Of a stretch of 64,000 nucleotides of DNA, positions 14,903-37,400 are shown one piece after another. Within the stretch, counting starts at the first letter, position 1; each line of letters begins with the position of its first letter. The position numbers and the translations under genes were made by a program. The stretch is from Candidatus Kapaibacterium sp. (GTDB taxonomy: Bacteria; Patescibacteriota; Patescibacteriia; UBA9934), in NCBI GenBank assembly GCA_044350705.1, contig JBILHA010000002.1, positions 178,295-242,294 on the forward strand, written 5' to 3'. Below the pieces are notes generated by a model. It had not been told where the DNA came from. It saw nothing but the letters and a program-made list of their open reading frames with translations, and made no database searches.

Positions 14903-15556
14903 TCATGCATCGTTTCCATATGCAAGGGTGCATGCGTATACCCGGGAAACCCCCGCTTGTCTGAGAACGTCCGCACACGCTACGAGCGTACTTCCGGTCG
15001 TTGCAACATCATCTACGAGACAGACGCTCTTTGGCACCTTGTCTTGCGGCCTTAACACACTCATGTAGGGATTCTTCTCACGCACCTCTCCCCGATCCTC
15101 TTTTTTTGTTTTTGCCTGCGCCTTTTTTGGTACTCGTTTTAATCCCTCCACGACACTCCATCCTCCTTTTGTCGCGATGCTTTGGGCGAGCATCTCTGCC
15201 TGATTAAATCCACGCTCTGCATACGCTTCTCTTGCCAGGGGAACGGGGATCAGGACTGTTTCTTTATCAAGAAAAAACATCTCTCCCTCTTGCATCCACT
15301 TTTGCCACCATTTTCCCGCCTCTTCATCGCCGCGATATTTCCACGCATGGAGCATTTTTTGTACCGCCGGCTCTTGATAAGAAACTCGTGAGAATATTTC
15401 TACCCCTTCGCATACCTTCTCACGATGCCAAGGAGGGAGCGTCACATTCTTTGCGCACCTTTGACAGAGAATCTCTCCTTCTTTCTTACAAACCACACAC
15501 GCCCTTGGAAAAAGGGCGTCCATGAGGAGGTGATAGATGGCTTTTAGTCTTGCCAT
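14903..15556 (-). CDS. comFC: ComF-family protein (ComFC; phosphoribosyltransferase-like competence protein)
   Basis: N-terminal 4-Cys zinc finger CVVCKK...CQRCAK and a C-terminal PRTase motif LVDDVATTGSTL. Confidence 0.75.
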   Translation of the reverse strand: MARLKAIYHLLMDALFPRACVVCKKEGEILCQRCAKNVTLPPWHREKVCEGVEIFSRVSYQEPAVQKMLHAWKYRGDEEAGKWWQKWMQEGEMFFLDKETVLIPVPLAREAYAERGFNQAEMLAQSIATKGGWSVVEGLKRVPKKAQAKTKKEDRGEVREKNPYMSVLRPQDKVPKSVCLVDDVATTGSTLVACADVLRQAGVSRVYACTLAYGNDA

Positions 15557-16116
15557 GTATAGGCATCTACCTTCCAAACCCCACCTTCTTGTACGAGCAC
15601 AACTTCAATCGCCTGATAACGAATTTCTTCATTTCCTGGGGATCCAAATGCCTCCTCACGCTGCGTTTGAACCATCAATGTCATGGATGTTTCTGTTTCT
15701 TGCGTGGCTTTCGCCCCGAGGCATGAGGTCGACACTCCATAATACCCGCCTTCTCCTCCCGGCTCTTGCGTGCGGGCTTGCTTTGCCTCTCGCTCCAGTT
15801 GGGCACTGAGTCGCGTGGTCACAAGGCCGAGTACATCATCAATATTTTGGAAGTCAGATTCAGAAGAATAACTTCCCACGCGCTCAACAAAGGTTCTTGC
15901 GACCGTTCCGGCAGAGACTTCTTGCGCTTTTGGCACATCCTCTGGATCATATGTTGGTTTTGGAGCAGGCGTGGTATTTGCCGCAGGAAGCGTCGTATTC
16001 TTCTCTTCTTCAATCTGTTGCGCGGTATTTTCCCGGGTCATCCAGAAAATAACTCCAAGCAACGCGAGGAGAATGACGACCGCTACACCGATTTCGATCA
16101 TGCGTTTTCTTTCCAT
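15544..16116 (-). CDS. Hypothetical bitopic membrane protein; candidate VirB8/PrgL-like T4SS component
   Basis: One N-terminal TM, a Pro/Thr-rich linker and a ~120-aa globular domain. Its position immediately downstream of VirB4 is the basis for the VirB8-like guess, which is positional only. Confidence 0.4.
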   Translation of the reverse strand: MERKRMIEIGVAVVILLALLGVIFWMTRENTAQQIEEEKNTTLPAANTTPAPKPTYDPEDVPKAQEVSAGTVARTFVERVGSYSSESDFQNIDDVLGLVTTRLSAQLEREAKQARTQEPGGEGGYYGVSTSCLGAKATQETETSMTLMVQTQREEAFGSPGNEEIRYQAIEVVLVQEGGVWKVDAYTWQD

Positions 16117-16125
16117 AAGAAATGA

Positions 16126-18048
16126 TTATGCTTGTTTTTGCTGCTCCGCGAGTGCGCGCTGATATTCTTCTCGCGCACGTTCCTGCTGCAGGATTTGCTC
16201 TGGATTTGTCGTCACAATTTGATCTTCCGTATATGACGCTACCACTTTAATCGCCGCATGCTTCTGTCCGGCGAAAAAGATCCCCTCCCCTACTGCTGCT
16301 TCGAGCAGAAGATACTTCTCACTTTGCGTGAGGTTAAACGTTCGCGCAACCAGATCCACGGCCGCAGGAGATTGTTTCAACAACATCTGGAGAGAAGAGT
16401 TGGTCACAATTGCTTGGCCGTATTGCGAAGTAAGGAAGTCGTTTACATCTTGCGTGATCGTCGTCACACCCAGGTAGTATTTTCGCGCGCGTTTTACGAG
16501 GGCAAAAATGAACTTTGCCGAATCTTCGTTTTGCATGAGCCACCACGCTTCATCAATCACCAACAAACGCTTTTTACGCTCCGAACGTACGACGTTCCAG
16601 ATGTAGTTTACGATGGTATAAATCGCCATGGGACGCAATTCATCTTCGAGGTCGCGTACGGAGAATACGACGAGCTGATTGCGCATTTGTACGGTTGTGG
16701 GAGAGTTCAGCAATCCCGAGAATGTTCCTGACACGTATTTCTGAATACGCGCAACAAGATTCTCCGCCCCCTGCATTCCCTCAAGGATTTGCATGAGGTC
16801 ATCAAGAATAGGATACGCTGCCACTCCTGCAAGCGAAGGAAGGTCAGGAGTAATATCTTTCTTTGCATACGCCTCCAAAAGTGCGCGATCGAGTACGCTA
16901 TCTTCTTCAGGGGTAAAGCCAAGCGTTCCCTTTTCTCCCATGGGCTTCCCGATCATGATGCGAAGCAGTCCCTTGAGCGTAATCACCGCGCTACGCAAGA
17001 TATCGTCTACCGAACTCTCTTCCCCCTTAGGGCGAGGAAGATCAAAAGGATTGATTTTTGCTTCAGACGCCAAGGAAACGTTTACGAATGTTCCGCCTAC
17101 GGCATCGGATAGCTGGCGATATTCCATTTCGGGGTCAATAACAATAACGTCCGTTCCCATCATGAGCGAACGGAGAATTTCGAGCTTTACCGTATAGCTT
17201 TTTCCCGCACCTGATGTTGCAAAGACGACCGAGTTTGCATTCTGCAGAGAAAAACGATCGAATAAAATGAGCGAGTTGTTGTGCCGATTAATTCCGTACA
17301 GGATGCCGTTATCGCTCGATACATCTGAGGAAATAAAGGGAAATGAAGATGCAATCGGTGACGTGTTCATGTTAAACGTAATCATGAGCTCGTCATTGCA
17401 TTCGGGAAGCGTGGAATTAAACCCTTGTTCTGATTGGTAGAATCCTCGCTTCGTGTAAATGAGTTTCGTGCCGAAAATTGCTTCGATTTCTTCAGTGCGT
17501 TTATCTAAATCCTCCTGATTTTTTCCGTATACGGTAACGTAGAAAGCAAACTGGAAAAAGTGCTCGATTCCTTGTGTCAGATCATCACGAAGTTGCTCAA
17601 TATCGCGCAGTGCGGTTTCCTGGATAGGATCACGAGGCTTTCCACTTTCATGATCCGCAACAATTTGCGCTTCGGTAATACCCACTTTGTCACGCAACTG
17701 TTTTAAAATGATTTCTGGTCGGATCGGATAAAAATACATGCCAATATCGATCGTCCCTTTGTAATTGATAATCGGCGCTCCCCATCCTATTCCTACGTAG
17801 CGAGGATAGGTGGTCACAAAAAGCGTACGCAAATACTGATCTCCAAGACGGAGGAAGTTTGGCTGCACTTCAAACGCTGCCGGCGCAATCAGGTCACGGA
17901 TGGATACGGTTCCCCGGCGATAGACACGCTCTTCTTCAAGCGTTGCGCGCTCTTCAGCTAACTTCTGCTCTTGAGGGGACAGTTTCTTTGGAGCAACTGC
18001 AATCTTCTGTGCCTGCTGCCTTTTGAGGTCTTCAATATTAAATGCCAT
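16126..18048 (-). CDS. VirB4/TraC/PrgJ-family T4SS ATPase, C-terminal ATPase portion (split gene)
   Basis: Walker A ATSGAGKSYT, VirB4-type Walker B LLVIDEAWWLM, and RKYYLGVTTITQ (the motif following Walker B). Confidence 0.85.
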   Translation of the reverse strand: MAFNIEDLKRQQAQKIAVAPKKLSPQEQKLAEERATLEEERVYRRGTVSIRDLIAPAAFEVQPNFLRLGDQYLRTLFVTTYPRYVGIGWGAPIINYKGTIDIGMYFYPIRPEIILKQLRDKVGITEAQIVADHESGKPRDPIQETALRDIEQLRDDLTQGIEHFFQFAFYVTVYGKNQEDLDKRTEEIEAIFGTKLIYTKRGFYQSEQGFNSTLPECNDELMITFNMNTSPIASSFPFISSDVSSDNGILYGINRHNNSLILFDRFSLQNANSVVFATSGAGKSYTVKLEILRSLMMGTDVIVIDPEMEYRQLSDAVGGTFVNVSLASEAKINPFDLPRPKGEESSVDDILRSAVITLKGLLRIMIGKPMGEKGTLGFTPEEDSVLDRALLEAYAKKDITPDLPSLAGVAAYPILDDLMQILEGMQGAENLVARIQKYVSGTFSGLLNSPTTVQMRNQLVVFSVRDLEDELRPMAIYTIVNYIWNVVRSERKKRLLVIDEAWWLMQNEDSAKFIFALVKRARKYYLGVTTITQDVNDFLTSQYGQAIVTNSSLQMLLKQSPAAVDLVARTFNLTQSEKYLLLEAAVGEGIFFAGQKHAAIKVVASYTEDQIVTTNPEQILQQERAREEYQRALAEQQKQA

Positions 18049-18052
18049 ATCT

Positions 18053-18754
18053 TTACGTCAGCTTGGTTTCTACGTGGAGCTTTCCAATTGCCTCAAGCGG
18101 CTGCGTTTCTCCCACCTCAGGATTATACGAGTTGTAGTAGAGCTCAATGAGTCCCTGCGTATCCAATTGCGCCACAGATAACCCCATGCTCTCTAATCCT
18201 CCTGCAATGAGCTGCGTTCGTTGCGTGATGGCATACCTCCTATCCTCGAATTGCTTCGCGTTGAGTTTCACGATAGATGCGGGATAAATAGCATTTTGCA
18301 GCTTTACAAAGAAGCCTTTTCCCTTTTCGTTGCCTTCACTGGCATCATACGGTACGACCACAAAAAAACGCTTCTGCATGATTTCTCCTAAATCTACAAG
18401 CTCTTTGATAAAGGAGGTATAGTCTCGAATTTGCGTTTTGAGGAGTTCGTTACTTATCCCTTCCTCTTGTGCCTTTAGACGCGCGAGATATCCATCGATA
18501 TTCATTTTCCTCGATTGGATGCATACCTGCAGAGGATGGTCGAGGCTGTTTAAAAATTGCATGTAGCCCTGGATGACTGCTTGCTGCTCGTCTTCGCTTT
18601 TGAGCGCAAAGTTAATGCTCGATACCATGAGCACCATGCGCATGGTTCCATCTTTCATCACTACCACGTTTTCTCGGATTTCAGCGATGTCCAAATAACG
18701 CTGGGTAGGAGGTCCAGCCTTTGGCCTTGCGAGTGCATTTCTTTGGTCTGCCAT
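18053..18754 (-). CDS. VirB4/PrgJ N-terminal domain encoded as a separate ORF
   Basis: 233 aa ending 4 nt before the ATPase ORF (TAA-AGAT-ATG, different frame). The segment YLDIAEIRENVVVMKDGTMRMVLMVSSINFALKSEDEQQAVIQGYMQFLNSL matches the conserved N-terminal region of Gram-positive VirB4 (PrgJ/TcpF-like) from memory. The summed length of 873 aa equals a full-length VirB4. Confidence 0.6.
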   Translation of the reverse strand: MADQRNALARPKAGPPTQRYLDIAEIRENVVVMKDGTMRMVLMVSSINFALKSEDEQQAVIQGYMQFLNSLDHPLQVCIQSRKMNIDGYLARLKAQEEGISNELLKTQIRDYTSFIKELVDLGEIMQKRFFVVVPYDASEGNEKGKGFFVKLQNAIYPASIVKLNAKQFEDRRYAITQRTQLIAGGLESMGLSVAQLDTQGLIELYYNSYNPEVGETQPLEAIGKLHVETKLT

Positions 18755-18757
18755 ACT

Positions 18758-19213
18758 TTATACCTGAGGGGGAAGTTCATCGTCGCCCTTGTAGACACCG
18801 CCGGTATTTACGATGAGCGTGAGCTCCGAAAGACGGGAGGATTCAAGGGGTGCTTTTCTTAGTTTTTCAGGCGGCTTTTCTTCCTCCACCTTTTTTAAAT
18901 ACACGCGAAGATCCGTATCAGAGAGCGTTTTATCCCACACTCTTTTTGCGGGCTTTTTAATATACTGCAGGAGGTTGAGCACGATATAGTGCAGTGGCTG
19001 GCCATTTACTTTTCCAAAAGCAAACGCTCCTCCGAGTGCGGCGATCGGGATACCAACCGCGAGCATGGGAAGCAGGCTCAAGAAAATGCGGTAGACTAAA
19101 AACTCTGCCACGATTACCCCTACCATGATGAGAAATTGGCGAAGCGTAATCGGGCCAATGATTTTTGGCTCTACATCAAGAAATTGCGGAACGACAAACT
19201 GGGATCGCGACAT
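18758..19213 (-). CDS. PrgI-like (VirB3-like) small membrane protein
   Basis: 151 aa with the N-terminal motif ...VPQFLDVEPKIIGPITLRQF... followed by two TM helices. It lies immediately upstream of VirB4, as in Gram-positive T4SS loci. Confidence 0.5.
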   Translation of the reverse strand: MSRSQFVVPQFLDVEPKIIGPITLRQFLIMVGVIVAEFLVYRIFLSLLPMLAVGIPIAALGGAFAFGKVNGQPLHYIVLNLLQYIKKPAKRVWDKTLSDTDLRVYLKKVEEEKPPEKLRKAPLESSRLSELTLIVNTGGVYKGDDELPPQV

Positions 19214-19230: not shown

Positions 19231-20982
19231 TTAGAACCGCGTTTTTTCATTCCAACGTGCTAATGCTTGCATCTCTGCAGGGCCCAGACTTTCCTGTCCC
19301 TGCGATCTTCGCCGTGCGGCAATTTCTGCAACCGCGACACCCGTATTCAGCGACTCTCCCATGAGTGTTACGTACAGGGTTGCAAGTGGACTCTTGCGCC
19401 ATGCGAGCACACCCCGTACCCGATCTTCGTAACTCGTTTTTTGTAATGACAAGAGCAGTGCTTCCATTTTTCTCACGGCTTCATCTGGATTTGTAGAAAG
19501 TCGTCGGAAGTCCGCGAGCGTCATGGTTCCTAACTGTTCAACAGGACCCATGAGCTTGTTTCCTGAGACGATATCCGTCACCTTTTTGGGTACGCCATTC
19601 TCCTGTACAGGAGCGACGCTTCCTACCGTTAACTCGACGACTGCTGGTGCAGGCTTTTGAGATTGCTTCGTGAGGGATGCAAATTTTTCCTCGGTTTTCT
19701 TTGCCTCCTGCTCTTCCCAGGCCTGCGCGTCTTCGTCAGTAATCTCAACGCGCACATCCTCTACACGCTTCAGCGCATCTCCCGCCACACGGTACGCATC
19801 TTGTGCCTGCAAGAGCGCCTGCATGAGGAGAGAAAGCTGCTCGCCTTTCACTTTATAGTCGCGTTCAAGAATATCGCGTGTTTGATACTGATCGCGAATA
19901 CCGCGGAGCATTTTTCCAACGATATCTGCGAATGCTGCGGTAGGAATCTTTCCCTCATCCAGAATAGCCTTACTTTTTTCGAGCGCAATATCAATCGCCT
20001 CTGAGAAGGCGACTTTTATGGCTTCATCTTGATTTTTCTTCGCTTTTTCAGCTCTTTTTTTTGCAATCGCTTCAGGCTTCTCTTCAAGAAGTGCCGGCTC
20101 TGACACCCTGTCCTTTTGCAGCGGCAGCGCGATCGATGCACGCTCTGCTTTTTGTCCTTGCTGTCGTTGCTCCTCCTGAATAGGCGAGGAAATCACCGGC
20201 ACTTCTGCCGCCATTTCATGAGAAGGAGGGATTTCGAGTGCGGTCGTGAAGACTTTCTCCTCATTTTTTGAAGATTCCTCAAGAGGCAATTGCTCCTTGA
20301 CCAGCGCCCCACTCTCTTTTTCTTGAGCATCCGCGACAACTTGCTCTTTCATTTTTTGCTTTGCACGGAATTCCTCTTCAGATACAAGCCGAACGCTCCC
20401 AAGCCCCTCTTCTATTACCTGCAAAAGTGTGTCAATTTGCTCTTTTGCAAGCCCTAATCCTCCAATGGTCAGCGGCCTTCCAAAAAAAATCTTTAAACTT
20501 TCTCCTGTTTTTTGTCCGCTCATTCGCTGCTCGAGGAGAAACGCGAGACGCTTCAACAAGAGATCTGAAAATGTAAGTCCGGCTTGGGATACCACTCTTC
20601 TTGCAAAGCTCTCTGCATCAATCATCTCCTTTTCAATGCGCATCCCCTTTTCGTAAAGCGACACATCAGCCCCCCAAATACGAAGCTGTTCCTCTATTCC
20701 TGGGAAAAAATCTTCCAGAGGGAGAAGTCTCAGGGCTGATACTTCCACGGCAAGTTCCTGAGATCTTGCATCGGAAAGATCAAATGCCTCCTTGAGGAGC
20801 CCGGGCACCTCTGCAAGAGGAATCTGCTCATCAAGGACAGCGTCCGTTAGATCAAGCAATTCTCCCACCCTTTCCTCTGGAATTTGATACTTCTGTCCAA
20901 CATCAATAAGCGCATCATAAATGTCGCCATCTTGAAGAAAGTTCCTTGTCGCATCGATATTAAGTAGCGTCGCGAGCGACAT
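19231..20982 (-). CDS. Hypothetical soluble coiled-coil protein (583 aa) in the T4SS cluster
   Basis: Long ORF with no TM segments and Lys/Glu-rich predicted coiled coils. No recognisable catalytic motif. Confidence 0.5.
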   Translation of the reverse strand: MSLATLLNIDATRNFLQDGDIYDALIDVGQKYQIPEERVGELLDLTDAVLDEQIPLAEVPGLLKEAFDLSDARSQELAVEVSALRLLPLEDFFPGIEEQLRIWGADVSLYEKGMRIEKEMIDAESFARRVVSQAGLTFSDLLLKRLAFLLEQRMSGQKTGESLKIFFGRPLTIGGLGLAKEQIDTLLQVIEEGLGSVRLVSEEEFRAKQKMKEQVVADAQEKESGALVKEQLPLEESSKNEEKVFTTALEIPPSHEMAAEVPVISSPIQEEQRQQGQKAERASIALPLQKDRVSEPALLEEKPEAIAKKRAEKAKKNQDEAIKVAFSEAIDIALEKSKAILDEGKIPTAAFADIVGKMLRGIRDQYQTRDILERDYKVKGEQLSLLMQALLQAQDAYRVAGDALKRVEDVRVEITDEDAQAWEEQEAKKTEEKFASLTKQSQKPAPAVVELTVGSVAPVQENGVPKKVTDIVSGNKLMGPVEQLGTMTLADFRRLSTNPDEAVRKMEALLLSLQKTSYEDRVRGVLAWRKSPLATLYVTLMGESLNTGVAVAEIAARRRSQGQESLGPAEMQALARWNEKTRF

Positions 20983-20990
20983 ACGTTTGT

Positions 20991-23867
20991 CTAAGTCATG
21001 TATCTTTCAGCGGCATTGTACGAACTACGGAGTCCACGAAGGCGCTTTATCTCGTCCGCAGAACTTGCCGTCGTTTCATGCACGCGAAGTGCAGCGCCGA
21101 TGGTACTCATCGCATCTTTTATCGCTGCTTTTTTTCCTGCATCCGTTTCTTTTCTCATCATCTCCGCCAGCTTGTTGAAATCTTCCTTTGAAAGACCGTC
21201 CACAATCGTCTTTGAGAAGTCGTTTCTCGCACCTTTCACTACCGCATCGCGAATCGCATCCTGCATGTGCGCCACAGAAGAAGGGTCCGCTTTCATAAGT
21301 TGCTGCACCTTCATGCGCTCATCTCGTCCAATATTCATGGATGGGTTTGTTGCAGGATTTGTGTCAACGCCTGGAATAATATCGGGAATGGTTTTCCCTG
21401 CCCCCAGAAGCTTCTGACGAATTGCATTTGCATCATCAATACTAATTCTTCCTCCTGCAGCCTCCATTGCCGCGAGCTGTGCTTGGATTTGGCTTTGCGT
21501 TGCCGCATTCATTTTTGAGAAGTCTGCCTTCGATTGTGCGAGCGCCTGAATTGCTTTATCAGCGTTTGCATTTCTTGATGAATCGAACATGGCGTCATTC
21601 AGCTGTCCTTCGCTGACTTGGCCATTCTCAAACGCTCTGCCGATATTCTCTACACTCTGCGTCTGCATGACATTCGTCACAAACTGCTGCTGCACCGAAG
21701 CAGCAGTAACCCCCGGAGGTCGTCCTGCCTTTGCCGCAGCCTTTGCTTCAGCATCGATTTGTTCTTTTGCAAGATTACTTACATCTGTTTTTCCTTCAAT
21801 AATTGCCTGAATAACGCTTGCCTTGCCTACATCAGTCGTCGTTAAATGCGCAGACGCCTCTGTGGTCTTTGATCGACCATATGTTCCTCGATTCAATTCA
21901 TCGAGTTTACTGACCTTCTTTCCACTTTCATACTTTGATGTCGCTCGACCCATTGCGTTTAGAACAGTTTCATCAGCAGCAGCCTGTGAACGCAAAAGGC
22001 GTCCGTTGAAATCTTCTGAATCGATGAATTTTTCTGCCTTACTCTTATCTACCTTTGCATAGAGATCCGCATATTGTGATCGTGCCTTATTCCATGCTTC
22101 TTTATCTATTGGTCGGTCATGCTCATGTTTATCAAAGTCACTCAAGGTGCTCTGTACGATTTCATCAAACTTCTCTTTGCCCACCTCCTTTTCTAAGGCT
22201 TTTGCAAAATCCTTATTCGTAAATAATTCTCCCCGAAGCACCTTCGCATCGGCTAAAATGTCATTTGAAATAGCGCCCGTTCCTGTCGCGGACTTCATCA
22301 ATCGAGATACCCTTTGCGCATCGGTCATGTGTGAAACGCGATCCTTTGCTGCTTTTTTCTCCTTTTCATCAAAACCATGCAAACGTGCATCAATCGAAGA
22401 GCCCGCCGACAAGAGAAGATCTGAACCCGTCGCAGCTCCTGCGGCACTCACAATATTTCCTGCGCGTTTCGCAATTTTCTTACCTCCAATGAGCGAAGAT
22501 TCGAGAGGGCTTTCTGCCACCTGCAGTCCACGCGTAGCGACCCCAGCTGCTTTCTGCGTTAAGTTGCCCGTGCGTTGTAAGAAAGCGTTCAGCCGAGGGC
22601 TGCTCCCTGCGAACATATTGGACCTTCCCAACATTCCTCCCGCTTTTCCCGCCAATTGACTGCCAACTCTTGCCCCCGTAACAGGTAAAGCAAGGGCTCC
22701 TCCAGATATTTTCCTTCCCAGAGAAAGCGCGCGGCGACCGGTCTTTTCATTGAGCGCCATTGCGGCGAGGCCTCCCATTTTTGACGCGATTTTCGCCGAC
22801 TCACGGATACCCATGAGTAAGAAGACGATCGCAATAAGGAGACCGGTGAAGTTGGTGGATTCGAAAATTTCGAGCGTGATTTGTCCGTAGGTTGTACGTT
22901 CTTCTGGCTCTGGGAATGCCTCTGCCTTTGCGAGGTGACCGTTTGAAGATGCGGCAAGCGCCAAATACAAGAAAAATGCGAGCATCGGGCCAAGGATGAG
23001 CGGGGGGACAAATCCCTGCACCCATTCATTCCACACGCGACCCAACCACTTGATGATATCCATGGACCCCCAGGAGAATCCTGCGAAAGGCGCCATGATA
23101 AATGCAATCCAGAGCATGATGATGCGCCAGATGAACGCTACGGCAAGCAGCAAGATGACGATCATCACCGCTACCTGCACCATGAGTTTTACGTAGGCGT
23201 TTGCAATGTTCGATGCCAATGTCACCAGCGTAATTCCCGCCTCAGACGCTCCTTGAAAAGTCGCCGAAGAGTACGTGGTTGCTTGCGGCATGACCATGAG
23301 CTGCGCAAAGTTTCCGGCCGCAATACTCATGAGCGCGTTTACGAACGTCATCATGACGATTTGACTTGCGTCTACAGCAAGACCGCAGATGGTTCTACTA
23401 AAGTTTGCAAAAACGATACCTAAGAAGAATCGAGGAAGGTGTTGCTGCCAGGCGCTACTTCCCTGCCCAACCATCGTTTTTACCGCCAAAATCAAGAGCA
23501 CAATGACCGCAAACATGTTTACCATGTCGCGCGTGAGCGTCCATCCGAGTGTGACGATGCTTGAGCTTGAGAAATTGTTGTAACTGAGGACATTGACGAC
23601 GATCACCTCAATGATCACGAGCGTGAGCGAACCAATCGCATCACCGATGAAGTTGATAATCTGCGCGAGGACGTTTCCAATCCACATGACCAAGCTGTTC
23701 GCCCAGGTGGATTCCTCGGGAGTTTCATATGCGGCATGCGCGATATCTGGTACCACCGCATGCATAAGCATGCCCATGCCAACAAAAAGACCAAGCACAA
23801 GTGCCGTGGTCCCTACTTTACGGAACAACCGACGCATCCCTCCAAACATATGGGAATAGTGTAGCAC
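20991..23867 (-). CDS. Polytopic membrane protein with a long hydrophilic C-terminal extension; candidate VirB6/TcpH/PrgH-like T4SS channel component
   Basis: 958 aa with about 8 TM helices in the first ~400 aa, then a ~550-aa Ala/Lys-rich coiled-coil tail (TcpH-like architecture). The start is GTG at 23867 or ATG at 23849. Confidence 0.5.
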   Translation of the reverse strand: MLHYSHMFGGMRRLFRKVGTTALVLGLFVGMGMLMHAVVPDIAHAAYETPEESTWANSLVMWIGNVLAQIINFIGDAIGSLTLVIIEVIVVNVLSYNNFSSSSIVTLGWTLTRDMVNMFAVIVLLILAVKTMVGQGSSAWQQHLPRFFLGIVFANFSRTICGLAVDASQIVMMTFVNALMSIAAGNFAQLMVMPQATTYSSATFQGASEAGITLVTLASNIANAYVKLMVQVAVMIVILLLAVAFIWRIIMLWIAFIMAPFAGFSWGSMDIIKWLGRVWNEWVQGFVPPLILGPMLAFFLYLALAASSNGHLAKAEAFPEPEERTTYGQITLEIFESTNFTGLLIAIVFLLMGIRESAKIASKMGGLAAMALNEKTGRRALSLGRKISGGALALPVTGARVGSQLAGKAGGMLGRSNMFAGSSPRLNAFLQRTGNLTQKAAGVATRGLQVAESPLESSLIGGKKIAKRAGNIVSAAGAATGSDLLLSAGSSIDARLHGFDEKEKKAAKDRVSHMTDAQRVSRLMKSATGTGAISNDILADAKVLRGELFTNKDFAKALEKEVGKEKFDEIVQSTLSDFDKHEHDRPIDKEAWNKARSQYADLYAKVDKSKAEKFIDSEDFNGRLLRSQAAADETVLNAMGRATSKYESGKKVSKLDELNRGTYGRSKTTEASAHLTTTDVGKASVIQAIIEGKTDVSNLAKEQIDAEAKAAAKAGRPPGVTAASVQQQFVTNVMQTQSVENIGRAFENGQVSEGQLNDAMFDSSRNANADKAIQALAQSKADFSKMNAATQSQIQAQLAAMEAAGGRISIDDANAIRQKLLGAGKTIPDIIPGVDTNPATNPSMNIGRDERMKVQQLMKADPSSVAHMQDAIRDAVVKGARNDFSKTIVDGLSKEDFNKLAEMMRKETDAGKKAAIKDAMSTIGAALRVHETTASSADEIKRLRGLRSSYNAAERYMT

Positions 23868-24273: not shown

Positions 24274-26022
24274 TTATTCCTCGATCACGACCCGCAGTCC
24301 GCAGCCACTTGACGTGGGATCATCGGCGGCGACCACCGACTGCGCATGTCCGTTCCAGGTTGCAGCTACCGTTCCCTGGATGGTTCCGGGCGGAAACGGC
24401 CCCAGGCAGGACCAGCTTGTCGTACCAGAGATGACGTACTCCACCGAAAAGCGGAGTGCGTCGCCCGGTTCCATGACGCGACGGTAGGTGAGGTGGGAGG
24501 TATCTGACCCCTCCGCAAGCACCCCCACCCAGCTCCGCGGATCACCACCCGCGGGGGTGAACTCCCCCGAGAGGGTGATGCGGCTTGCCGTCGCCGCATC
24601 TGGCGTTGTCCAGGTGAGCACGAGCTCCCTCTCTTCCTCGATGTCGGTCTCCGCCGGTGCTTCTTCTTCCTCTTCCCGCGTTTCTTCTTCCTCAGGCGGA
24701 TCACCCGCGCTCTCGTAGGCTCCTCCCCCAACCGCAGCACCGCCGCAGGTGGTGATCAGAGACTCGGTGAGGCAGGAGATGCCCGTCGCACAGCTCCCGC
24801 GCACGGTCACGATGCTCTCGAACTCGCTCCGCTCCACTTCGAGCACCGTTCTTTCCCAGAACCCCATGAGCAGATAGACGCTCCACGTCTCGATGGGCAT
24901 CGCAACACCATCGCTCATGAGGTACACGTCGCTTGCATCGGCCGGAGAGATGAGGCTTCCATCGCGGTAGCGCGCGTTGCCGCTGTGCACCGGATAGTCG
25001 CCAAGATCGTCGGAGAGATCGGACGCCTGGAGCAGGTCATCGTACGTCGCGGCGCTCATGCCCCACGACTTCACAACCCCCTGCCAGCCGAGCGTACCGA
25101 TCTTCTGTCTCGCACGATACTCATCGCCGCGCGTTCCCATGAGAAGCCACACGCCGGTTCCGCCTTCGTCGTCGTACACCGCGCGCACTGCGGACGCATC
25201 TCTCAGGCTCTCGCCTTCTTCGAAGCAGGAAAGCTCCTCGGGGGAGACGAGCGCAACATGCGCGAAGTCGTAATTGCGGGAGGTGAAGGCGCTCTCGGTC
25301 ACGAACACGCGCCTCTTCCCTTCTTCGATGAGGTACACCGCGCTCTCGAAGGGCGTCTTCACGAGCGTGCCGTTCGGGTGCCAGCGCGGCACAGGAAGGG
25401 ACGACTCGTACCGATGACCGGACGTGAGATCGCAGATCATGCTCGTTACCGGCGTTGCCTGTGCCGGCGTTCCCCGCGTGGCATTGCGCGCGAAGAACTC
25501 GAGCCCCTCCTGCGAGATTCCCTGGACGCCGTCGTCCGCTGCATCTCCCCAGTGACGGCCGATATGCAGATGGTCTCCCGTGGAGTTCCCCGTCGTCCCT
25601 TCGATTGCGATGATCTGGCCCGCCACCACTTCGCTCCCATCCTCCACAAAGATGTCGGACAGGTGCGCGAGGATGATATAGGTACCGTCACCGAGATCGA
25701 TGTTGATGTGCAGACCGAAGTTCGTCGTCGAATTGCGGTCGTGCACGTACGCCACGCCCGCGACCGGCGCGTACACCAGATCGTCGGCGTCGTTGGGGGT
25801 GTCGAAGTCCACGTCGTAGCGCGTTGCGGTTCCCCGGTGGGAGTAGCTCCCTCCGGTCCCCTGGCTGCAGCGGTAGCTCTCCCCTTCGGCGAAGGGCAGA
25901 TGAACCGTCACCGCGTCACGCCCTCCCCCGCCGATTCCGGTGTCTTCAGGAATGCTCAGCGGCGGCAGCGGCGAACAGCTACAGAAAAAAAGTACGAGGA
26001 GCGCACAAATAATGAAGGTCAT
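24274..26022 (-). CDS. Secreted/lipoprotein M23-family metallopeptidase with a large C-terminal domain; high-GC gene
   Basis: Signal MTFIICALLVLFFCSCS. The M23 motifs are HRGTATRYDVDF and GNSTGDHLHIG (G-x-STG-x-HLH). An acidic linker PPEEEETREEEEEAP is present. GC is about 65% versus about 45% in flanking genes. Confidence 0.75.
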   Translation of the reverse strand: MTFIICALLVLFFCSCSPLPPLSIPEDTGIGGGGRDAVTVHLPFAEGESYRCSQGTGGSYSHRGTATRYDVDFDTPNDADDLVYAPVAGVAYVHDRNSTTNFGLHINIDLGDGTYIILAHLSDIFVEDGSEVVAGQIIAIEGTTGNSTGDHLHIGRHWGDAADDGVQGISQEGLEFFARNATRGTPAQATPVTSMICDLTSGHRYESSLPVPRWHPNGTLVKTPFESAVYLIEEGKRRVFVTESAFTSRNYDFAHVALVSPEELSCFEEGESLRDASAVRAVYDDEGGTGVWLLMGTRGDEYRARQKIGTLGWQGVVKSWGMSAATYDDLLQASDLSDDLGDYPVHSGNARYRDGSLISPADASDVYLMSDGVAMPIETWSVYLLMGFWERTVLEVERSEFESIVTVRGSCATGISCLTESLITTCGGAAVGGGAYESAGDPPEEEETREEEEEAPAETDIEEERELVLTWTTPDAATASRITLSGEFTPAGGDPRSWVGVLAEGSDTSHLTYRRVMEPGDALRFSVEYVISGTTSWSCLGPFPPGTIQGTVAATWNGHAQSVVAADDPTSSGCGLRVVIEE

Positions 26023-26651
26023 GGGCCGACGTCTCCGGAGATGAAACGATGATTCGTTTCTTTTCCCCTTGCAGAGGGAGTCCCAAAGGAACTGCAAGGG
26101 AAACCGGAGCGCAGCATATGCCCTGGGGTAAGGACTCCCCTCCTTACCCCTTTATTTATTAAGTATGGAATGCTGTTTGCCCGGCTGTCGTTTTGAAAGC
26201 GCGTTTTTTGGTACCCGCTTTCAGGGCGATCAGGCGCGCGTTTGTCATTCCTGCAGACACTCACGAACGTTCCTTCAAGGTCGTGCCCGAACTCGTCGGT
26301 CGTTCTGCTTCCATATCACCATAAAAAAAGAAGTCTTCAAGTAAAAACCTTTAAAAACTCTTCTCTTTTTTGCGCGTTTTCGTTTCTGGTATCTTTTTTT
26401 CTTTTCATTGTCAGAAAACAATGAACAGCTTTTTCGCAAAACATCTCTTTGAAGCGATGCGTTGTCCCCTCTCCAAAAACACCGTGGGAAAAGCTGTCAG
26501 GAGTGCAAAAACTGTGGATAACCTACAAAAAACACGCCCCTTGCAATGGGCGTGTTTCCTCTCTCTTGAAGCTCGCGTATACGCCCCTCCTGGCCTCCCC
26601 GATGGGGAGGATCTCGGTGGAAACTCCCCTGACTCACCCGAGACGCTTTCA

Positions 26652-28439: not shown

Positions 28440-31400
28440 TTACGGAGTTACCGTGATGACTCCATCGTACTCCACCCAAGGATTTATCGAGGAGTTTTGT
28501 TCTGGGTAAATTCCGTATGAACACTCGCTGTAATCCATTGTACTGGACGCATTGGCATCGTTGTACATTCCCACAAAGCATCCGCCTGGACTTGTCGTTC
28601 CATAGCTTGAAGTGCTTGATTCGATTGCGTTTCCATCCGTACATGTTCCCGTACACCAGCCCCAGTTGTCGCGGACGTGGACGCGGGGACGGAAGACGCA
28701 GGAATCTGCGGCATCGTCACCGGTTTCGTCGATCGCACAAGGGAACTCGTCGTATTCGCCGTCGCCATCGGTATCATCACAGCGGTCGCCACGAAGTACT
28801 TCTGATGTACAGGTATAGACGTGGTTGTAGTTGAAGTAGTACGGATCGCAGCTTTCATCGGTAAGACCCCATTCAGAATCAAGGTCACATTTTGATTCTT
28901 GCTGGCCGTCCTGCAAACCACGAGCGTTCTTGAAGTAGTTCTCGTCGTCATCTGATCCGGTTTGCATTCCGTCTCCCCAGTCAATCATGACCTGACGGAT
29001 AGGAAGCTGGTTCTTGTCTGCGGCCGCGTAGAACTTAATCGTCGCATTGAAGAACTGAATTCCGGATTGATCACCTGTTTCTTGACCGTTGAGGGTAATC
29101 GCACTCTGCGTTCCTTCTTCACACATAAGGCCGTCACTTGAACACGAACCGACATCGACCGCCCATACCGTTGGCGGAACTCCTTCTGCCGGACGGACGT
29201 CGTACGCTTCATCATCTGCATCATAGTCTGCCCATAGACTCGTCTCCGTAGGAAGAACGGAGAAATAATCTCCTACATCTTCCCAATCACCATCTATATA
29301 TTCTCGTTCACCTGTAAAGTCACCCTTCCAGATCCATAGGGCAGCATCTGCTACCGAAGCGAATACTTGCGTAATTGATTCAAGCGAGTACTGCAGTGGC
29401 TCTGAAGTCGCCGTATAGAAGTAGTATGAGGATGTATCTGATACGTATGCGTACGGATGTCCATCCCATCCATATCCCACACCGTCCCAGCTTCCTGTAA
29501 AGGTGAATGGAATATATGAGCGTGCTTGTAACAGCTCAGATGCAGGATCACCTAAGGTTCCTACGTCAGGATATCCGCTTGGGCACGAATCAAATGTAAC
29601 TCCCGTCGCAATCGTAATGTCGTCTCCTCCGTGATAGTTATCTGAGCACTGCGCTACATAGAATGGCGCTTCGTATTCCTGAACCGGCTTATCGAGATTG
29701 ATAGCGCCAAATATGCCTGGGGTTGTTTCTTGATTGTATTCAACATTGGAAGACAGGTCTGACTGCAGCGTATGTCCATTGTAAACACGATCCGTCCATG
29801 CATACGATCCTTCGTCATCAGATGAAACCTGCACTACTACAGAACATGCAATATTTTCATCCATAGCATCATGGAATCTGTCTGCATAGATTTCAGGAGC
29901 GTTCATCCAAAGATTTCGGTATCCGGTTCCTCCCGATGAGGACTCCGTATCGTCTGCACCGTCGCTTTGTGGATAGTCCGTAATATCTAGCACGTCATAG
30001 AAAATATCCGCCTCTGCGTATTCTCCTCCACGCATGTAAATACCGCGTACTTTACAGTCCTGATAATCATCTGCAACCGTGTCGAAATGACCGTAGGTTC
30101 TCTCCTCTGAATCGCTACTTCCGCTGCTCGTATCTCCTCCTCCTTCTTTTGGATTGAGCGATGCATACCAGACACGCGTTCCGTCATTACTCGTACCTTC
30201 ATTGGATATTCGACTATCTTCGCTTGGGTCACAAGACTCATAGTCGTACTCCACTTCCCCATCGCTTTCTACATATTTCGCAGAGTTCTCAGGAACGCAT
30301 ATATACGGACAGTCATTATCTCCCACGCCATCCCTACACGTATCAGCTGAGTAGTTATTACTCACTCCCGCACCACGGGCACGTGCTCCCATGATCGCAA
30401 AGAATCCCTCCGGGCAATGCACCGCCTGATCACAGGCCGCATCACTCGTGCTCCACGCATCCTCATCGTTACCCACACTACTATCATCACTCTCCGCACA
30501 TGCAACACCCTCCGTATATCCATCTTGAATTACGCTGCTTGGCGAAGGGGTGATCGTTGAGAATGCCTGTACGTCTGCACACATGTAAATATCTTCGAAG
30601 AATCCCGCGCTTGCGTACTTTGCCTGCAAGTCTGTATCTCCCTGTAGGCGGTCAACCGGCAACCAAGAGATACACGCCTGCTTTGTACGGTCGCCAAGGA
30701 TATTGAGCGACGTATCTTTCTCGAGACAGAAGCCATTCAAGCCGTAGATTACGTCTTCTCGGGTGGACTTTGCACAGGTCGATCCATCTCCACACTGCTC
30801 GTCTTCCGTGCAGTATCCTCCTGAACGCTCTCCACCCTGACATACACCCAATTGATCAGCTACCGCAATACAGGATCCGGATTCGCATGTGCTTCCATCA
30901 GTACATATTTCCCCTGCATCCGTATCCGCCTCTTCCTCACCATCTCCATCAAGATCACCTCCACAAATCGAGAATTCTGGATCCCAATCTTGGTTGTAGT
31001 ATCTCGTTTCCATCCCTTCTCCGAAGCTCACCTTGGTGTACGAACAGTCACATACTTCCCCATATGCACACGCTTCAACGTTCTCAAATCCCGAGAGAAG
31101 ATCGTAGGGCAATGCATCATACGTAGGATCGGTGTCAATCGTTCCTTGATCCGAAGGGTCATACCACGCTTCAACAACTTCATTTGGGAATGGACTCGTT
31201 CCCTCTGGGTATGCGCGACAAATCTTTCCTTCAGTAACGCCGTTTGCGTACGTTTCACCATCAGGCGTCAGCAAACACTTGCTATTGATACATGATCCGA
31301 GTTTGAGTTCGGCAGCGGGAATGAAGGTTTCTGCAGAGCTACAGGTGCTCGCTTCTGCGGTTTCACTATCGTAGTCTTCGATCGCCACGTCATTACCTAC

Positions 31401-34400
31401 TTCTGCACACGTACCGCTGTAACACGTTTGACCTTCTGAACAATCAGCTGCGGTCTGACAGAGTACCGGATTTCCACTGGCATCTTCGTCGAGGTCGTAA
31501 CATGCGCCAACAATACAGTCACCATCGCCGCATTGGTCGCTTGAAGCACATGCGGCACCGTTTGACGAGCAGTACCCCACTGCACACGCATTGCCATAAT
31601 CTTCCGAACAGCTTCCGGCATCAAGAACGAGCGCGTAGTCAACCTCATCAATGAGTCCTGCGGCTTCCGTCGCCTCTGGAGACATACAAATACCCGAACC
31701 CGCCATACATGCCTCTCCCACGGCTTCACACGAGGAGTCGCTGGCAAGCGAGGGGGAAGCTGTACTCGCACCATATACACAATATGCAATCGGGCTTACA
31801 TCAGCTTGACTCAGCGACTGCACGGGGAATAAATCAGGAATCGCCATGCCCGAGTATTCATTTCCATACCAAGAGGTATCGCGTGAGGCATACCACTCCT
31901 TATCAAAGAGCACATCTGGCTCTTCCATGTCCCACTCTGCGCAGGAGGAAGTTCCGGTTGTTGCATCGTAGTCGGTACAGAGCTCGATATCGGTACACGT
32001 GTTGATGAAGCTTGCGGTATCTTCGTCCCAACGTGGGTTATCGCTTGCACAGGCAAGCCATTCTGAACATGCACGGTCGCGATTTACTTTCAATACCGTG
32101 TTTACATCATTTTCTTGGCGAGGCACCCAATCGAAGTTTGCATTGAGTTCATCTTCCATCCATGCGCTAAATCCAAGCGATCCAAAAAGTCCTGGATCAA
32201 CACGTACCTGGGTTCCACACGTTACCGCTTCAACACTTCGTCCAGATTCACTTTCAACCAATGCACAGTCCGTAGAATCTACACAGGAGCCACCGAATAC
32301 GAAGAGGTCATCTCGATCGTAATCCCCCCCAAACGAGAGTTCGCTTGCGAGCTTTGCTCGATAGGTATCTCCATCGGTTAAATCGTATACCTCCCCGTAG
32401 TCATAAATACAGCGCGTAGCACAGAGGTCAATTTCAAGACCATCCGACGTGGTAATCGTTGTATCTCCCCCATTCTCACAATCGATAGGATCGACCAACC
32501 CGTATGGCTCGGTACCAAACAATTCATCAGCATGACGACTCGATACTTCCGTTGCAGAAGCATTTGCCGTAAGTGAGGTGCTGGACGTGTCATAGAACAT
32601 GGCACACCCGTTCTTGAGCGACACTTGTCCATCACACTTTTGACTATCCGAAAGGCCGTATTCACTTAGGGTGTCGTTGTTGAGATAGAAATAAGATGTT
32701 CCGTCGCTCATGCCGTAAATCTCCCCATCATCTTGCGCGAGGGTGTCCTGGAATTCGCTACAGGTGTCATAGGTTGCGTCACATGTTCCTGCCCAGCCGC
32801 CAAATCCAGCATCTCCGTTCTTCCAAATACCAGACTCATCCCCTCCAATGACATACGAAGGATTCTGCGCATTACAAGTCTCCCCCGATCCACAATCCGC
32901 GCTACTTCCACATGCATCTCCTTCATTTCCCCCGGAATCTTCACACGTTCCGTAACAGAAGTCCTGCGTTCCTTCGCGGAACCATCCGGTGTATCCCACC
33001 CCGTCTATCGTGACATCCGTGCGGTATTCACACTTTTGATCAAGCGGGTGCTTAAAGTAATACGTTGCCGCCTGGTTGGTTGTGAACGCATCACAGAAAA
33101 GCTCTTCATGGGCGCAGAGCGTGCTGTCGTATTCATCTGGAAGATTTAAGAAGTACACACTTTCTGCACCGTCCGTACTATTACGATCTTGATTCCAGTC
33201 TGGATCACCGAATTCTGTACATCCTGCAGCGGAAGCAGAGCACGTTACCTCGTCGGTCACCACCAAGAACATTGCCTGGTCTGCAGGCACGATGGTTGTT
33301 TCCGGTCCATACGAAACGGCAGTTTCGCCAAGTCCCCAAGCAGGCGTGAAGCCATCCATTGAGAAGAGACAGGAAGATTCACCTACCGCAATCGTACAAA
33401 GGTATGGCGAAGCCTCGTCGAAATCTGCCGAGGATTCATAGAAGTAATAACACGCGGTTGCCGATGTTGCAGTATCCGGCTCACTGTCTCCATCGTCGTC
33501 GATATTGTTACAGGTTGCGTTCACAGTTTTTGCCGTGTGACTTGCGCTTTCCTGGGTCTTGAAGAAGGCGTCGCATCCTACTTTGTCTTCATCACAGAGT
33601 GAGCTAAAGCTCTTGAGATACTCAGTCTCATCGTCTTGCGTCGTGTATTCCTGACAACCCAAGTAATACTGCGGGCTTGCATCTCCCGTGACCGATTGAT
33701 CGCACGACGCAGGGGTTACCCAAGAATCTCGGATCACCGTGATATTCTCCTCACCCTCTCGGAGAACGATATTGTCGACATATGCCGAACCCGTAGGCAC
33801 GAGCACAAGCGACGTACCCTCACCAAAACGTGGGTAATCCTCCGCATCCATGACGAGCGGTCCGAGAGTAATTTGCTGCCATCCGTCTTCAAGCTCTACT
33901 GCGCTATCAAATGCGAGATCAATAGAAGGAGATGAAGGATCTGCCTCAAAGTCAAAGCCTACCTCAAGCGTACCCGTTCCCTTTGCGACCACACTTACCG
34001 TGTAGGTTTTTCCGGCAAAGAGTTCGTTATGCAGCGTTCCGCAATAGCCATCATTCTCCGCTATCGTACATTCTCCACCAAAACTGAGCGCCGTACCCGC
34101 ACATCCTCCTTCGGTCGTACAGGTTCCCCCGTTATCTGCGATAAAGGAAGTGACCGGTCCGGTCATGAGCATGGAGTGCCCATCAGAAGCAAGTGATTCG
34201 TTACTGTAGGTCGCATATGAAGCTGATGCCGCATCCCATTGATTGAGCGTTCCGCTTTCAAAGATTTCTTCGAGCACTAAACGACTATTTCTGCTTCGAC
34301 CTCCTGCGTATGCACGACAACCGTTTGCCGAGGCATCACACGAGGTACTTTCTTCTGGGTAGCCGTAATAGCGACACTCTCCCGAGTCTCCCACGTAGTA

Positions 34401-37400
34401 TCCTCCTGAATCTTCACAAGTGATCTGTTGCGCTGCCGCTGTCTCCCCTGCGACTTCCGTCTTTCGGTATGCCTGACAGGAATTATGAATCGTCACGGTT
34501 TTTGTCCATTCTCGGTAATGAATGTTTCCGCTTTCGTCGTAGAATTCTCGACAATCTGCGTTCGTAAAGATATCTGCACGGGAGTTACAGTCTTCCGTAT
34601 CCCAATCGTAATAGCCGTCTCCATCATCATCAGCGGAGTCATTACAAGTAATGCCGTCATCGGTCGCGGTCCAGTTACTACAAGGCGCCAAGTTAGGAGC
34701 GGTATCGGTTACCCCATCGGTTCCTGTGTGCGTATAGCTTGAAGAACCGAGATCTGACTCCAAGAGCGTCCAGGTTTGCAGCTGATATCCGTCTTCATCT
34801 GATCCCTCCCAGGTGTAATATGTCGCTTCTGTTCCTGCAGCTTGTGTTTCAGTGACACATGCACGCAAGAAGCTGTAGTACTCCTGCTCTTCTGTTGCGA
34901 GGTTGGTAAATTCGTCACATCCCACTTCTTCAGCGGAACACTCAGTTGCGGTATCAGGAATGAAGTACACCGCATCTATTCCATCAGGTTCATAGAGCGT
35001 TGCCTCTTGGCGATAGGTGTCGTATCCCGCACACTCCGAAGGACAGCTATCTAACTCCGTTGCAATACCTGAAAGCGCAGGATCGCCGTTTGTTGGGGTG
35101 TACATCGTACATCCCATGTCTTGCTCGGAGCACACCTGTGCGTAGTTTGCACATTCCGCAGGATCATCTTCGCTTCCAGTACATCCAAGATATGCAGGCG
35201 CAACCTTTGCGACTACGGTCGTGTAGTCGGTGTCGCTATATCCATTTACTGGAGTAGACGTATCTTCCCCTTGTTCGAGCTGCATGCTATCAACATAGCC
35301 ATCGAATGCGAGAACGTATAAATCACCGAATACGCGCAATGACGGCTCTGGCAGAGGCGGAACGGTAAAGGTACAGCTAAAACGCTCATACGACGTTCCT
35401 TCCGGCTGCATGTTTTCAATTCCTACCCCGTCGGTTCTTGTTGCGCCAAAAATATCTACGTAGCTATCGTCACAATCTCCAATAATTGCCAGTCCTTCAA
35501 TATCAATGCCCGCTCCTTCTTCATCTTTCAATGCTAATCCTACGCTTACCGTATCGGTACCTGCATCGGTTGCTTGGCGCGCATAAAATGAAAGCGTGTA
35601 GGTACTTGCTTGCGTTAATTCAATACCAGGCTGATAGAGCGCTCCACGCCCACCGGATCCTGGAGAAATCGCCACCTCTCCCTCTCTTGCAACACTGCCA
35701 TCCAAAGAAACGGTTGAAGGCCATGAGGTTCCTGCAAGGTGATAATCAAACCAGCCGTCTGGACGGTCATCGCTGTCGTCATCCTCTTCAAAACTTGGGT
35801 TCAATACGACATTGAGGCGAAGATCGGTGTCGCGTTCGATCAGCGTGGAACATCCTCCTTCTTCTTCATCGCAATCTTCGATCTGACTATTGAAGTAGAT
35901 ACGAGATGCGTATGTTTCGCTGTCTGCATCCGCGCCTGCAATATCATCAATTGCCGCAAAAGCAAATGTTCCGTCATCTTGTTGCTCTTTTACCGTGTTA
36001 TACCAGCGACATCCTACGGTGTCCGAAGTACAAGGTCCGGGATCAACGGTATTCTTTAACAGCGCGATATCATCCCCCGCTGAATCTTCAAACACCAAAC
36101 AAGAAGCCGCGTATTCTGGACAGCTCTCTCCGCGGAATTGCCACGTATTTTCTTCTGCCACACAGTAGCCGTATCCTCCAATACAGTTTCCATTTTCATC
36201 CTCTGCGATACAGCTTGGCATATCCACACACACCTGTGCGCGTTCATCTGCCTCCTTGGTCAGCAAAAGTTCTCCATACGCCTGCATGCGGCACTGGGTA
36301 TCCGGGTACTTCAGCACCCAATCCGGATCGATCATTTTGCACCAGGGATGGTTATCATCCGGAAGGCCATCTGGACCGCAGGAGTTAAATCCGTTGATTA
36401 CCTCCTGAAGGGTAACCGGGCTTTCTGCAGAATTTGCTGAGGAATTTGCCGCAAGTTCCCATCCGATAGAAATTACGCGTGCTTTTCGAAGCTTTACCAA
36501 GTTTCCATAACAGAATCCATACGTGTAACAGAAAGCATCCTGGTTGCGAGCCGCGTCAGAGGAAGGAATGAGCGGCCAATCCCCATTCATAAGACCGTCA
36601 TCGATCGCTTCTTCAATGGTTAGGGGCGCCCCAGACTCTGCTCGTGCAATTGCTGATACAAAATTTGAATCCGCTACACAGTTATATAGTCCGCGCGTTG
36701 ATGAACCTGGGCAGGTAATAAACTCCGACAGAATACTGTAGTTCGTAATCTGCAACGGCGCTGCAGTGAGCAATGAGCGATACCGATCTGCCGCTGCCTG
36801 CTGCGTTCCGAGCGCAAAACTCTCAGGATCAAACGGATCAACCTGCGTCACGTCAAAATCAAAGAGCCCCATCCAAATGCGCTCCTGGAGCTTTGAAAGC
36901 AGGGTATTCGTAAATACACTTGCTGCATGTATTCCCACCTGTCTAATCAGGTCTTTATTTCCCAGCATGGCGAATGTTGCCTGCTGACGTACATCTCCAC
37001 TGTTTTTCTGCGCATCTTTTACCTGCGTTGAAAGGATATCAGCCGGAGTTTCTACATTTCCCGTAATAAAATCTACAATATCCTTAAATCCTCCATCATT
37101 GAGCTTTTTCTGTACACCGATCAGGGGAAGAAAAGTCGTTTCTCCAAAGACATCGGTATACACCCCAAGTCCCGCGCCAAACTCTGCCTTTTGGGGATCG
37201 TACATGTTGGCAAGTTCCGCAAGGACGAGCTGGTTTTTAAAAGGCGCTTTGTATCCCTCTAAATCTGCAATAAATGCCTGCCAAGTTCCTTCTGGACCAA
37301 ACATTTTGTTAAAGTCACATTTTGGCTCTGGACGATCGAAGACCCCCTTAATACCCAACTTGAACTGCAGCAAAATGTACGGGGTTGAAGGCGCACAAAG

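Follow-up and report, generated by a model that had tools for sequence, protein, structure and literature searches.

The VirB4 ATPase of a type IV secretion system (T4SS) is very probably encoded by two consecutive cistrons in DNA from Candidatus Kapaibacterium sp. (GCA_044350705.1, contig JBILHA010000002.1, positions 178,295–242,294 of the forward strand; this whole stretch of 64,000 nucleotides (nt) is called the window). The first open reading frame, ORF1 (18053..18754, minus strand; 233 amino acids (aa)), encodes a TrsD-like or 'TraC-like' (PF26593) protein equivalent to the first sub-domain of the VirB4 N-terminal region, and the second, ORF2 (16126..18048, minus strand; 640 aa), encodes a shortened VirB4-type ATPase, recognized by profile and structure-chain matches. 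We hold with high confidence that this arrangement is natural and conserved, the two products probably acting together. Related loci keep both genes intact and conserved, invariably next to each other and preceded by a VirB3-like prgI gene. The window contains a chromosomal T4SS locus that is normal for an ultra-small bacterium of the Patescibacteria (Candidate Phyla Radiation, CPR), and its closest relatives carrying names are Candidatus Uhrbacteria metagenome-assembled genomes (MAGs). The original prediction, made from the letters of the window, had described a VirB4 ATPase split by a stop codon and a frame change and had left a genuinely two-piece VirB4, a recent pseudogenizing mutation and an assembly or sequencing indel as possible causes. 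The first of these was borne out by a split common to 79 of 79 related loci and by collinearity with fused VirB4 proteins.

Read directly, the junction between the cistrons is TAA AGAT ATG, the 4-nt spacer AGAT (18049..18052, minus strand) lying between the TAA of ORF1, which ends ...VETKLT-TAA, and the ATG of ORF2, which is in the +1 frame relative to ORF1. Coordinates, lengths, the ...KLT-TAA end and the ATG 4 nt later in another frame were thus all reproduced as first described. The Walker motifs reported for the 640-aa ORF were likewise located: Walker A (ATSGAGKS) at residues 277–284 (codons 17197..17220, minus strand) and the DEAW Walker B at residues 499–502, within LLVIDEAWW (codons 16543..16554, minus strand). 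Together, the two ORFs total 873 aa (233 + 640).

Homologues of ORF1 and of ORF2 each numbered in the thousands, so both are real genes and not chance ORFs. ORF2 scored 333.1 bits against the NCBIfam NF045971 CD1110 family (cut-off 325), aligning to profile positions 171–730 of 752, and matched P-loop_TraG (E 6e-26), AAA_10 and DUF87 in Pfam. Its residues 241–613 matched the VirB4 C-terminal domain of PDB entry 4AG5 (E 5.8e-47). By these sequence matches ORF2 is assigned to the VirB4-type T4SS ATPases of the CD1110 family, MPF-FATA class, with a second N-terminal sub-domain at approximately residues 46–240 followed by a P-loop C-terminal domain at approximately residues 241–613. The complete N-terminal region is absent from the ORF2 polypeptide, which begins at CD1110 profile position 171. 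ORF1 aligned to positions 5–103 of the same 752-position profile (E 2e-5), and this complementarity indicates that ORF2 lacks what ORF1 supplies. ORF1 also matched NCBIfam VirB4_plasma (positions 110–233 of 894, E 1.3e-7) and the TrsD/TraD family NF041427 (25.4 bits, E 1.1e-5, positions 24–141 of 201). Having failed the 200-bit cut-off of NF041427, it is classed on its profile matches as a remote TrsD homologue outside that subfamily. It also stands where TrsD stands, as a gene for approximately 200–230 aa between a virB3-like gene and a virB4 ATPase gene.

The PF26593 'TraC-like' domain was precomputed on P0001, a protein 99% identical to ORF1, and on all of the best 120 ORF1 homologues, which were without exception 201–238 aa long and came from Patescibacteria MAGs wherever the source was named. 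Neither ORF1 nor TrsD of the staphylococcal plasmid pSK41 gave a match in the local Pfam copy, which has no PF26593 model. Searches of PDB chains with the ORF1 sequence and family profile returned nothing relevant; the sole hit, a thymidylate kinase (E 0.05), was dismissed as chance. The likeness of the 233-aa protein to VirB4 N-termini, on which the original prediction depended, is therefore present in the NCBIfam profiles and in the fused relatives described below: it is real, weak at the level of ORF1 itself and firm through the fused forms. The resemblance to the N-terminus of VirB4 thus stood, while its attribution to the PrgJ/TcpF type specifically did not, the best subfamily being CD1110 (MPF-FATA).

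Most proteins found by an ORF1 search of 1.8 billion representative sequences measured 200–440 aa; two were long, at 898 aa (P0212) and 797 aa (P0247), and both ORFs could be aligned to these. In P0247, ORF1 residues 11–218 correspond to residues 2–215 and ORF2 residues 46–620 to residues 226–789 (49% identity). In P0212, ORF1 residues 17–226 correspond to residues 14–223 (40% identity) and ORF2 residues 22–620 to residues 306–890 (50% identity), the two matched regions being separated by a proline-rich linker of about 80 residues. Because ORF1 and then ORF2 align to both proteins in a collinear and non-overlapping manner, no residues are missing at the junction, and the pair is read from these alignments as the exact counterpart of a single-chain VirB4. 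Alignment to full-length VirB4 had been proposed as a check on the split, and P0247 and P0212 provide it. That the fused form is a gene-calling accident was ruled out by the relatives of P0247: 118 of the best 120 were 775–807 aa long, with an N-terminal PF26593 domain and P-loop domains, and they came from many contigs, several labelled Candidatus Colwellbacteria. A sizeable minority of ORF1 homologues (P0125, P0130, P0146, P0155, P0193, P0202 and others) were 300–440 aa long, with a terminal conserved domain and a long tail that recalls the proline-rich linker of P0212.

The split falls in a linker. The last 25 residues of ORF1 are modelled with low confidence, and the start of ORF2, approximately its first 45 residues, is charged and little conserved. 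In P0247, the Pfam TraC_F_IV domain (residues 169–394) runs across the split point, which places the division within the classical VirB4 N-terminal region and not where that region meets the ATPase domain. An AlphaFold model of P0247 (pLDDT 76.7) matched full-length TrwK/VirB4 of R388 over 820–879 alignment columns (E ~5e-28), and also matched 4AG5 and 4AG6. Within this model, residues 14–207 and 239–393, equivalent to ORF1 and to approximately residues 46–215 of ORF2, run through one and the same succession of secondary-structure elements: three strands, helix, strand, two helices, strand, helix, strand, helix. As judged from the model, the two VirB4 N-terminal sub-domains may have arisen by tandem duplication in the distant past, in which case the gene split lies between the repeats. 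Comparison of the ORF1 and ORF2 families by hhalign for internal duplication was not significant (probability 1%, 22 columns), a result that also led us to reject ORF1 as a paralogous copy of the N-terminal part kept in ORF2.

Conservation of the split was examined in a genome scan that yielded 80 loci, 79 of which reach far enough to judge the junction; their MAG labels include Uhrbacteria, Kuenenbacteria, Kerfeldbacteria, Falkowbacteria, Magasanikiibacteriota, Komeilibacteria and Veblenbacteria, among others. In all 79, the ORF1 homologue stops (TAA, TAG or TGA) and is followed by a separate ORF2 homologue of approximately 620–700 aa, both genes being intact, and a prgI-like gene lies directly upstream of the ORF1 homologue in all 80 loci. 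Identity to the window proteins ranged over 44–87% for ORF1 and 59–95% for ORF2. The median spacer was 8 nt, within a range of −38 (overlap) to +461 nt, and 63 of the 79 spacers did not exceed 20 nt. In L001, which is 87% identical, a 19-nt spacer lies between conserved coding flanks.

These loci decide between the two-cistron reading and the other causes first put forward. A recent nonsense mutation and frameshift that broke a formerly single virB4 would explain why a stop and then a frame change interrupt what is elsewhere one protein, and fused forms do exist in other Patescibacteria. Yet the split is shared by every locus that could be judged, down to 44% ORF1 identity and with varied junction geometry, and both halves are intact and obviously constrained. 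Each ORF2 homologue begins with a start codon of its own and a conserved MA.../MF... N-terminus, and the junction interrupts no fold, lying in tails of poor conservation and low model confidence. An assembly or sequencing indel, in turn, would produce an artificial stop and frame change, and nothing beyond the junction geometry itself speaks for it; the identical TAA-AGAT-ATG junction occurs in three independent assemblies from different samples (L084, L085 and L086; ENA ERZ28575898, GCA_009925725.1 and GCA_009921885.1), and the gene pair is found in 79 other genomes and in finished plasmids. Because the split is universal among these loci and the junction is identical in three assemblies, we regard pseudogenization as excluded for practical purposes, and give an indel no realistic chance of being the cause.

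Programmed recoding, by a +1 frameshift or by read-through, would instead yield a fused 873-aa VirB4 from the two frames, and it would suit the window, where the spacer is very short and ORF2 stands in the +1 frame relative to ORF1. However, a TGA shuts the ORF2 frame 9 nt ahead of the ATG (C TGA CGT AAA GAT ATG), which leaves only an ACG-TAA shift site, without a slippery sequence. The relatives, moreover, show all frame relations (0, 1 and 2 in 25, 19 and 35 of the 79 loci, respectively), overlaps, spacers above 100 nt and even an inserted gene, so that no conserved recoding signal is possible. We consider recoding very improbable. The inserted gene, at L052:6757-7071, encodes a 104-aa GIY-YIG nuclease (Pfam, 52 bits) inside the 461-nt spacer between the ORF1 and ORF2 homologues, and is flanked by an apparent inverted repeat.

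Two further observations were made on the related loci. In L044, L018, L039 and L069, the 111–245-nt spacers between the ORF1 and ORF2 homologues have long terminal inverted repeats (in L044, for example, ACGTCATCCTGAACAAG...CTTGTTCAGGATGACGT) and look like small palindromic or MITE-like insertions. Many of the related loci, L002, L003, L005 and L008 among them, come from records titled 'uncultured Gammaproteobacteria bacterium' and carry T4SS loci 70–82% identical to Patescibacteria ones; the label on those MAG records looks like a placeholder or an error.

Several points weigh against a VirB4 assembled from ORF1 and ORF2. ORF1 fell far under every curated NCBIfam cut-off that it touched (25–30 bits against 200–590). 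Its model is only moderate in confidence (pLDDT 67.7), and when compared alone with the same TrwK chains as above it gave E values of 0.04–0.07, which are not significant. No Shine–Dalgarno-like motif was visible just upstream of the ORF2 ATG when inspected by eye, no scan being made, and translational coupling is for this reason only suggested by the spacing. TrsD is, moreover, stated to have no assigned function in the passages devoted to it by Quinonero-Coronel et al. 2025 (PMC12102498).

This last point bears on a further explanation, in which ORF1 is an independent accessory T4SS protein, such as an assembly factor or regulator, that derives from the VirB4 N-terminus and is no longer part of VirB4. 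The same passages report TrsD homologues of Gracilibacteria unlinked to virB4 (PMC12102498), and the long extra C-terminal tails of those ORF1 homologues that reach 300–440 aa would fit such a role. Set against this are the strict adjacency of the two genes in all 79 loci, the lack in ORF2 of exactly the segment that ORF1 supplies, as seen both in the fused relatives and on the CD1110 profile (5–103 against 171–730), and the match of the fused proteins to TrwK over its full length. An accessory protein is accordingly held to be improbable, less so than the causes discussed before it.

A two-cistron VirB4 could operate as follows. ORF1 and ORF2 would be co-transcribed and probably translationally coupled, because operon spacers are tiny throughout. 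The two polypeptides would then associate non-covalently and rebuild a complete VirB4 protomer, in which ORF1 would give the membrane-proximal part that contacts VirB3 in the solved R388 machine. In the R388 structure, the N-terminal region of VirB4 is where the ATPase is wrapped by VirB3 and tethered through it to the membrane translocon. The hexameric ATPase, for which both the hexamer and ATP hydrolysis are predicted, would then power the chromosomal T4SS. Were this so, a separate ORF1 polypeptide could permit a different stoichiometry, or control over the timing of ATPase docking onto VirB3. The T4SS of Patescibacteria is thought, according to the papers cited here, to serve epibiotic growth and not conjugation.

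The genes surrounding ORF1 and ORF2 form a tight operon on the minus strand, and all features given here are on that strand. In order of transcription, a 958-aa polytopic membrane protein (20991..23867; 8 predicted transmembrane (TM) segments within the first 350 aa) is followed after 8 nt by an acidic 583-aa protein (19231..20982, from the ORF list; L084 has a 585-aa gene at the equivalent place) and, after a further 17 nt, by the 151-aa PrgI/VirB3-like protein (18758..19213). The latter matched Pfam PF12666 PrgI at 36.6 bits against a cut-off of 27 and has two predicted TM segments (residues 18–36 and 43–61); neither ORF1 nor ORF2 has any predicted membrane segment. The stop of the PrgI/VirB3-like gene lies 3 nt ahead of the ORF1 ATG, ORF2 follows ORF1 after 4 nt, and 9 nt downstream of ORF2 lies a gene for a 190-aa protein with one N-terminal membrane anchor (15544..16116), present at the same length in L084 and L085, beyond which comes a ComF-like phosphoribosyltransferase. 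Scans of Pfam and NCBIfam gave no match for the 958-, 583- or 190-aa proteins. The 958-aa protein is a candidate VirB6-like channel subunit, and the 190-aa protein is a possible T4SS accessory protein and VirB8-like candidate. The T4SS membrane-component neighbourhood of ORF2 is confirmed through the directly upstream PrgI/VirB3-like gene, the VirB6-like role being one that we infer. A membrane-anchored M23 peptidase of 607 aa (24274..26097; Pfam Peptidase_M23, E 2.5e-14; TM 26–44) is a candidate cell-wall hydrolase of the system, and would be a VirB1 analogue.

The neighbours of the locus are housekeeping genes (ZnuA, the ComF-like phosphoribosyltransferase and tRNAs). No relaxase turned up in the Pfam and NCBIfam scans of neighbouring ORFs, for which no dedicated relaxase model was used. 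The features by which the Patescibacteria clade of T4SS is recognized in the relevant passages of PMC12102498 are found here: a chromosomal virB4, adjacent trsD and virB3 homologues, and no relaxase seen nearby. Farther upstream, a few genes away from the T4SS operon, lies a giant ORF of 3122 aa (28440-37808, minus strand) that includes a CBM_4_9 carbohydrate-binding domain and may encode a surface or adhesion protein.

Split forms of VirB4 are found in the relatives of the window (Uhr-, Kuenen-, Kerfeld- and Falkowbacteria), in pGO1-type plasmids and in Bacillota megaplasmids. Fused forms are found in Colwellbacteria, and the 752-position CD1110 model and TrwK also span both pieces; PrgJ and TcpF are fused forms too. 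Since both states occur within Patescibacteria and within Bacillota elements, we infer that more than one fission or fusion event is likely. A split VirB4 may be the ancestral condition of this clade, given that the nearest non-CPR relatives are split. It is conceivable, though we would put it forward with some doubt, that the TrsD family is nothing but the detached first sub-domain of VirB4, with fission and fusion having occurred more than once at one permissive linker. The main consequence is for annotation: a virB4 locus in two genes, whether in Patescibacteria or in pGO1-like elements, should not be marked as a pseudogene or an assembly error, and the small gene ahead of virB4, labelled 'hypothetical' or 'TraC family', should be interpreted as the N-terminal portion that the ATPase itself lacks. 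These loci also give T4SS biology a natural experiment for asking which portion of VirB4 can be provided in trans.

The original prediction had called a two-piece VirB4 unusual. In this class of Patescibacteria such a layout is standard; it also occurs on pSK41/pGO1-type and other Bacillota plasmids and has been published. Among known systems, Staphylococcus aureus pSK41/pGO1 (MPF-FATA, pGO1 subclass) has the same gene layout: trsC (135 aa), trsD (227 aa, 'TrsD/TraD family') and trsE (672 aa), against 151, 233 and 640 aa in the window. The ORF1 family profile matched pSK41 TrsD by hhalign (E 8e-5, probability 61%), and ORF2 residues 52–602 align to TrsE residues 36–617. There are differences: ORF2 and TrsE are only 25% identical, and the system in the window is chromosomal, where that of pSK41 belongs to a conjugative plasmid which has its own relaxase and coupling protein.

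For ORF1 and for ORF2 alike, the nearest relatives on plasmids lie on the same records, from Pontibacillus, Priestia, Embleya and Miltoncostaea. These Bacillota and Actinomycetota megaplasmids, together with Clostridium botulinum pCBG, hold the nearest non-CPR relatives of both proteins (29–31% identity for ORF1 and 30–37% for ORF2), but they are plasmid-borne and more distant in sequence, and the two-gene annotation was seen for Pontibacillus and for pCBG. In Pontibacillus NZ_CP062975, a 274-aa protein and a 621-aa CD1110-family ATPase are annotated as two genes overlapping by 11 nt; pCBG has PrgI (93 aa), a TraC-family protein (257 aa) and an ATPase (620 aa), the latter two also overlapping by 11 nt. 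The single-chain VirB4 of other Patescibacteria (e.g. Colwellbacteria P0247) and TrwK of R388 share with the pair collinearity over the full length, domain order and Walker motifs; they differ in being one polypeptide of approximately 790–820 aa, where the window has a stop and restart after the first N-terminal sub-domain.

Guglielmini et al. 2014 (PMC4027160), consulted as the possible origin of the TrsD–VirB4 homology statement, does not name TrsD in its main text, so that PMC12102498 is the only source given for it here; a 2025 review of T4SS nomenclature (PMC12857230) discusses neither TrsD nor a split VirB4. The nearest published counterpart is the TrsD and VirB4 pair of Patescibacteria (PMC12102498). 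In the passages concerned, TrsD is the commonest T4SS component of Patescibacteria, 1,664 of its 2,272 homologues adjoin virB4, remote homology to the VirB4 N-terminus is reported, and the TrsD homologue of Southlakia epibionticum ML1 is listed as essential, with citation of Wang et al. 2023. Because that paper reports it, the pairing of TrsD with virB4 in Patescibacteria counts as known, and the window is one more instance. As far as those passages go, the phylum, the virB3-like/trsD-like/virB4 order, the chromosomal location and the PF26593 'TraC-like' domain on ORF1 agree, and nothing substantive differs, except that TrsD is treated there as a separate component and not as a detached piece of VirB4. 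What is added here is an explicit demonstration that a TrsD-like protein plus a short VirB4 equals the fused VirB4 of a sister lineage.

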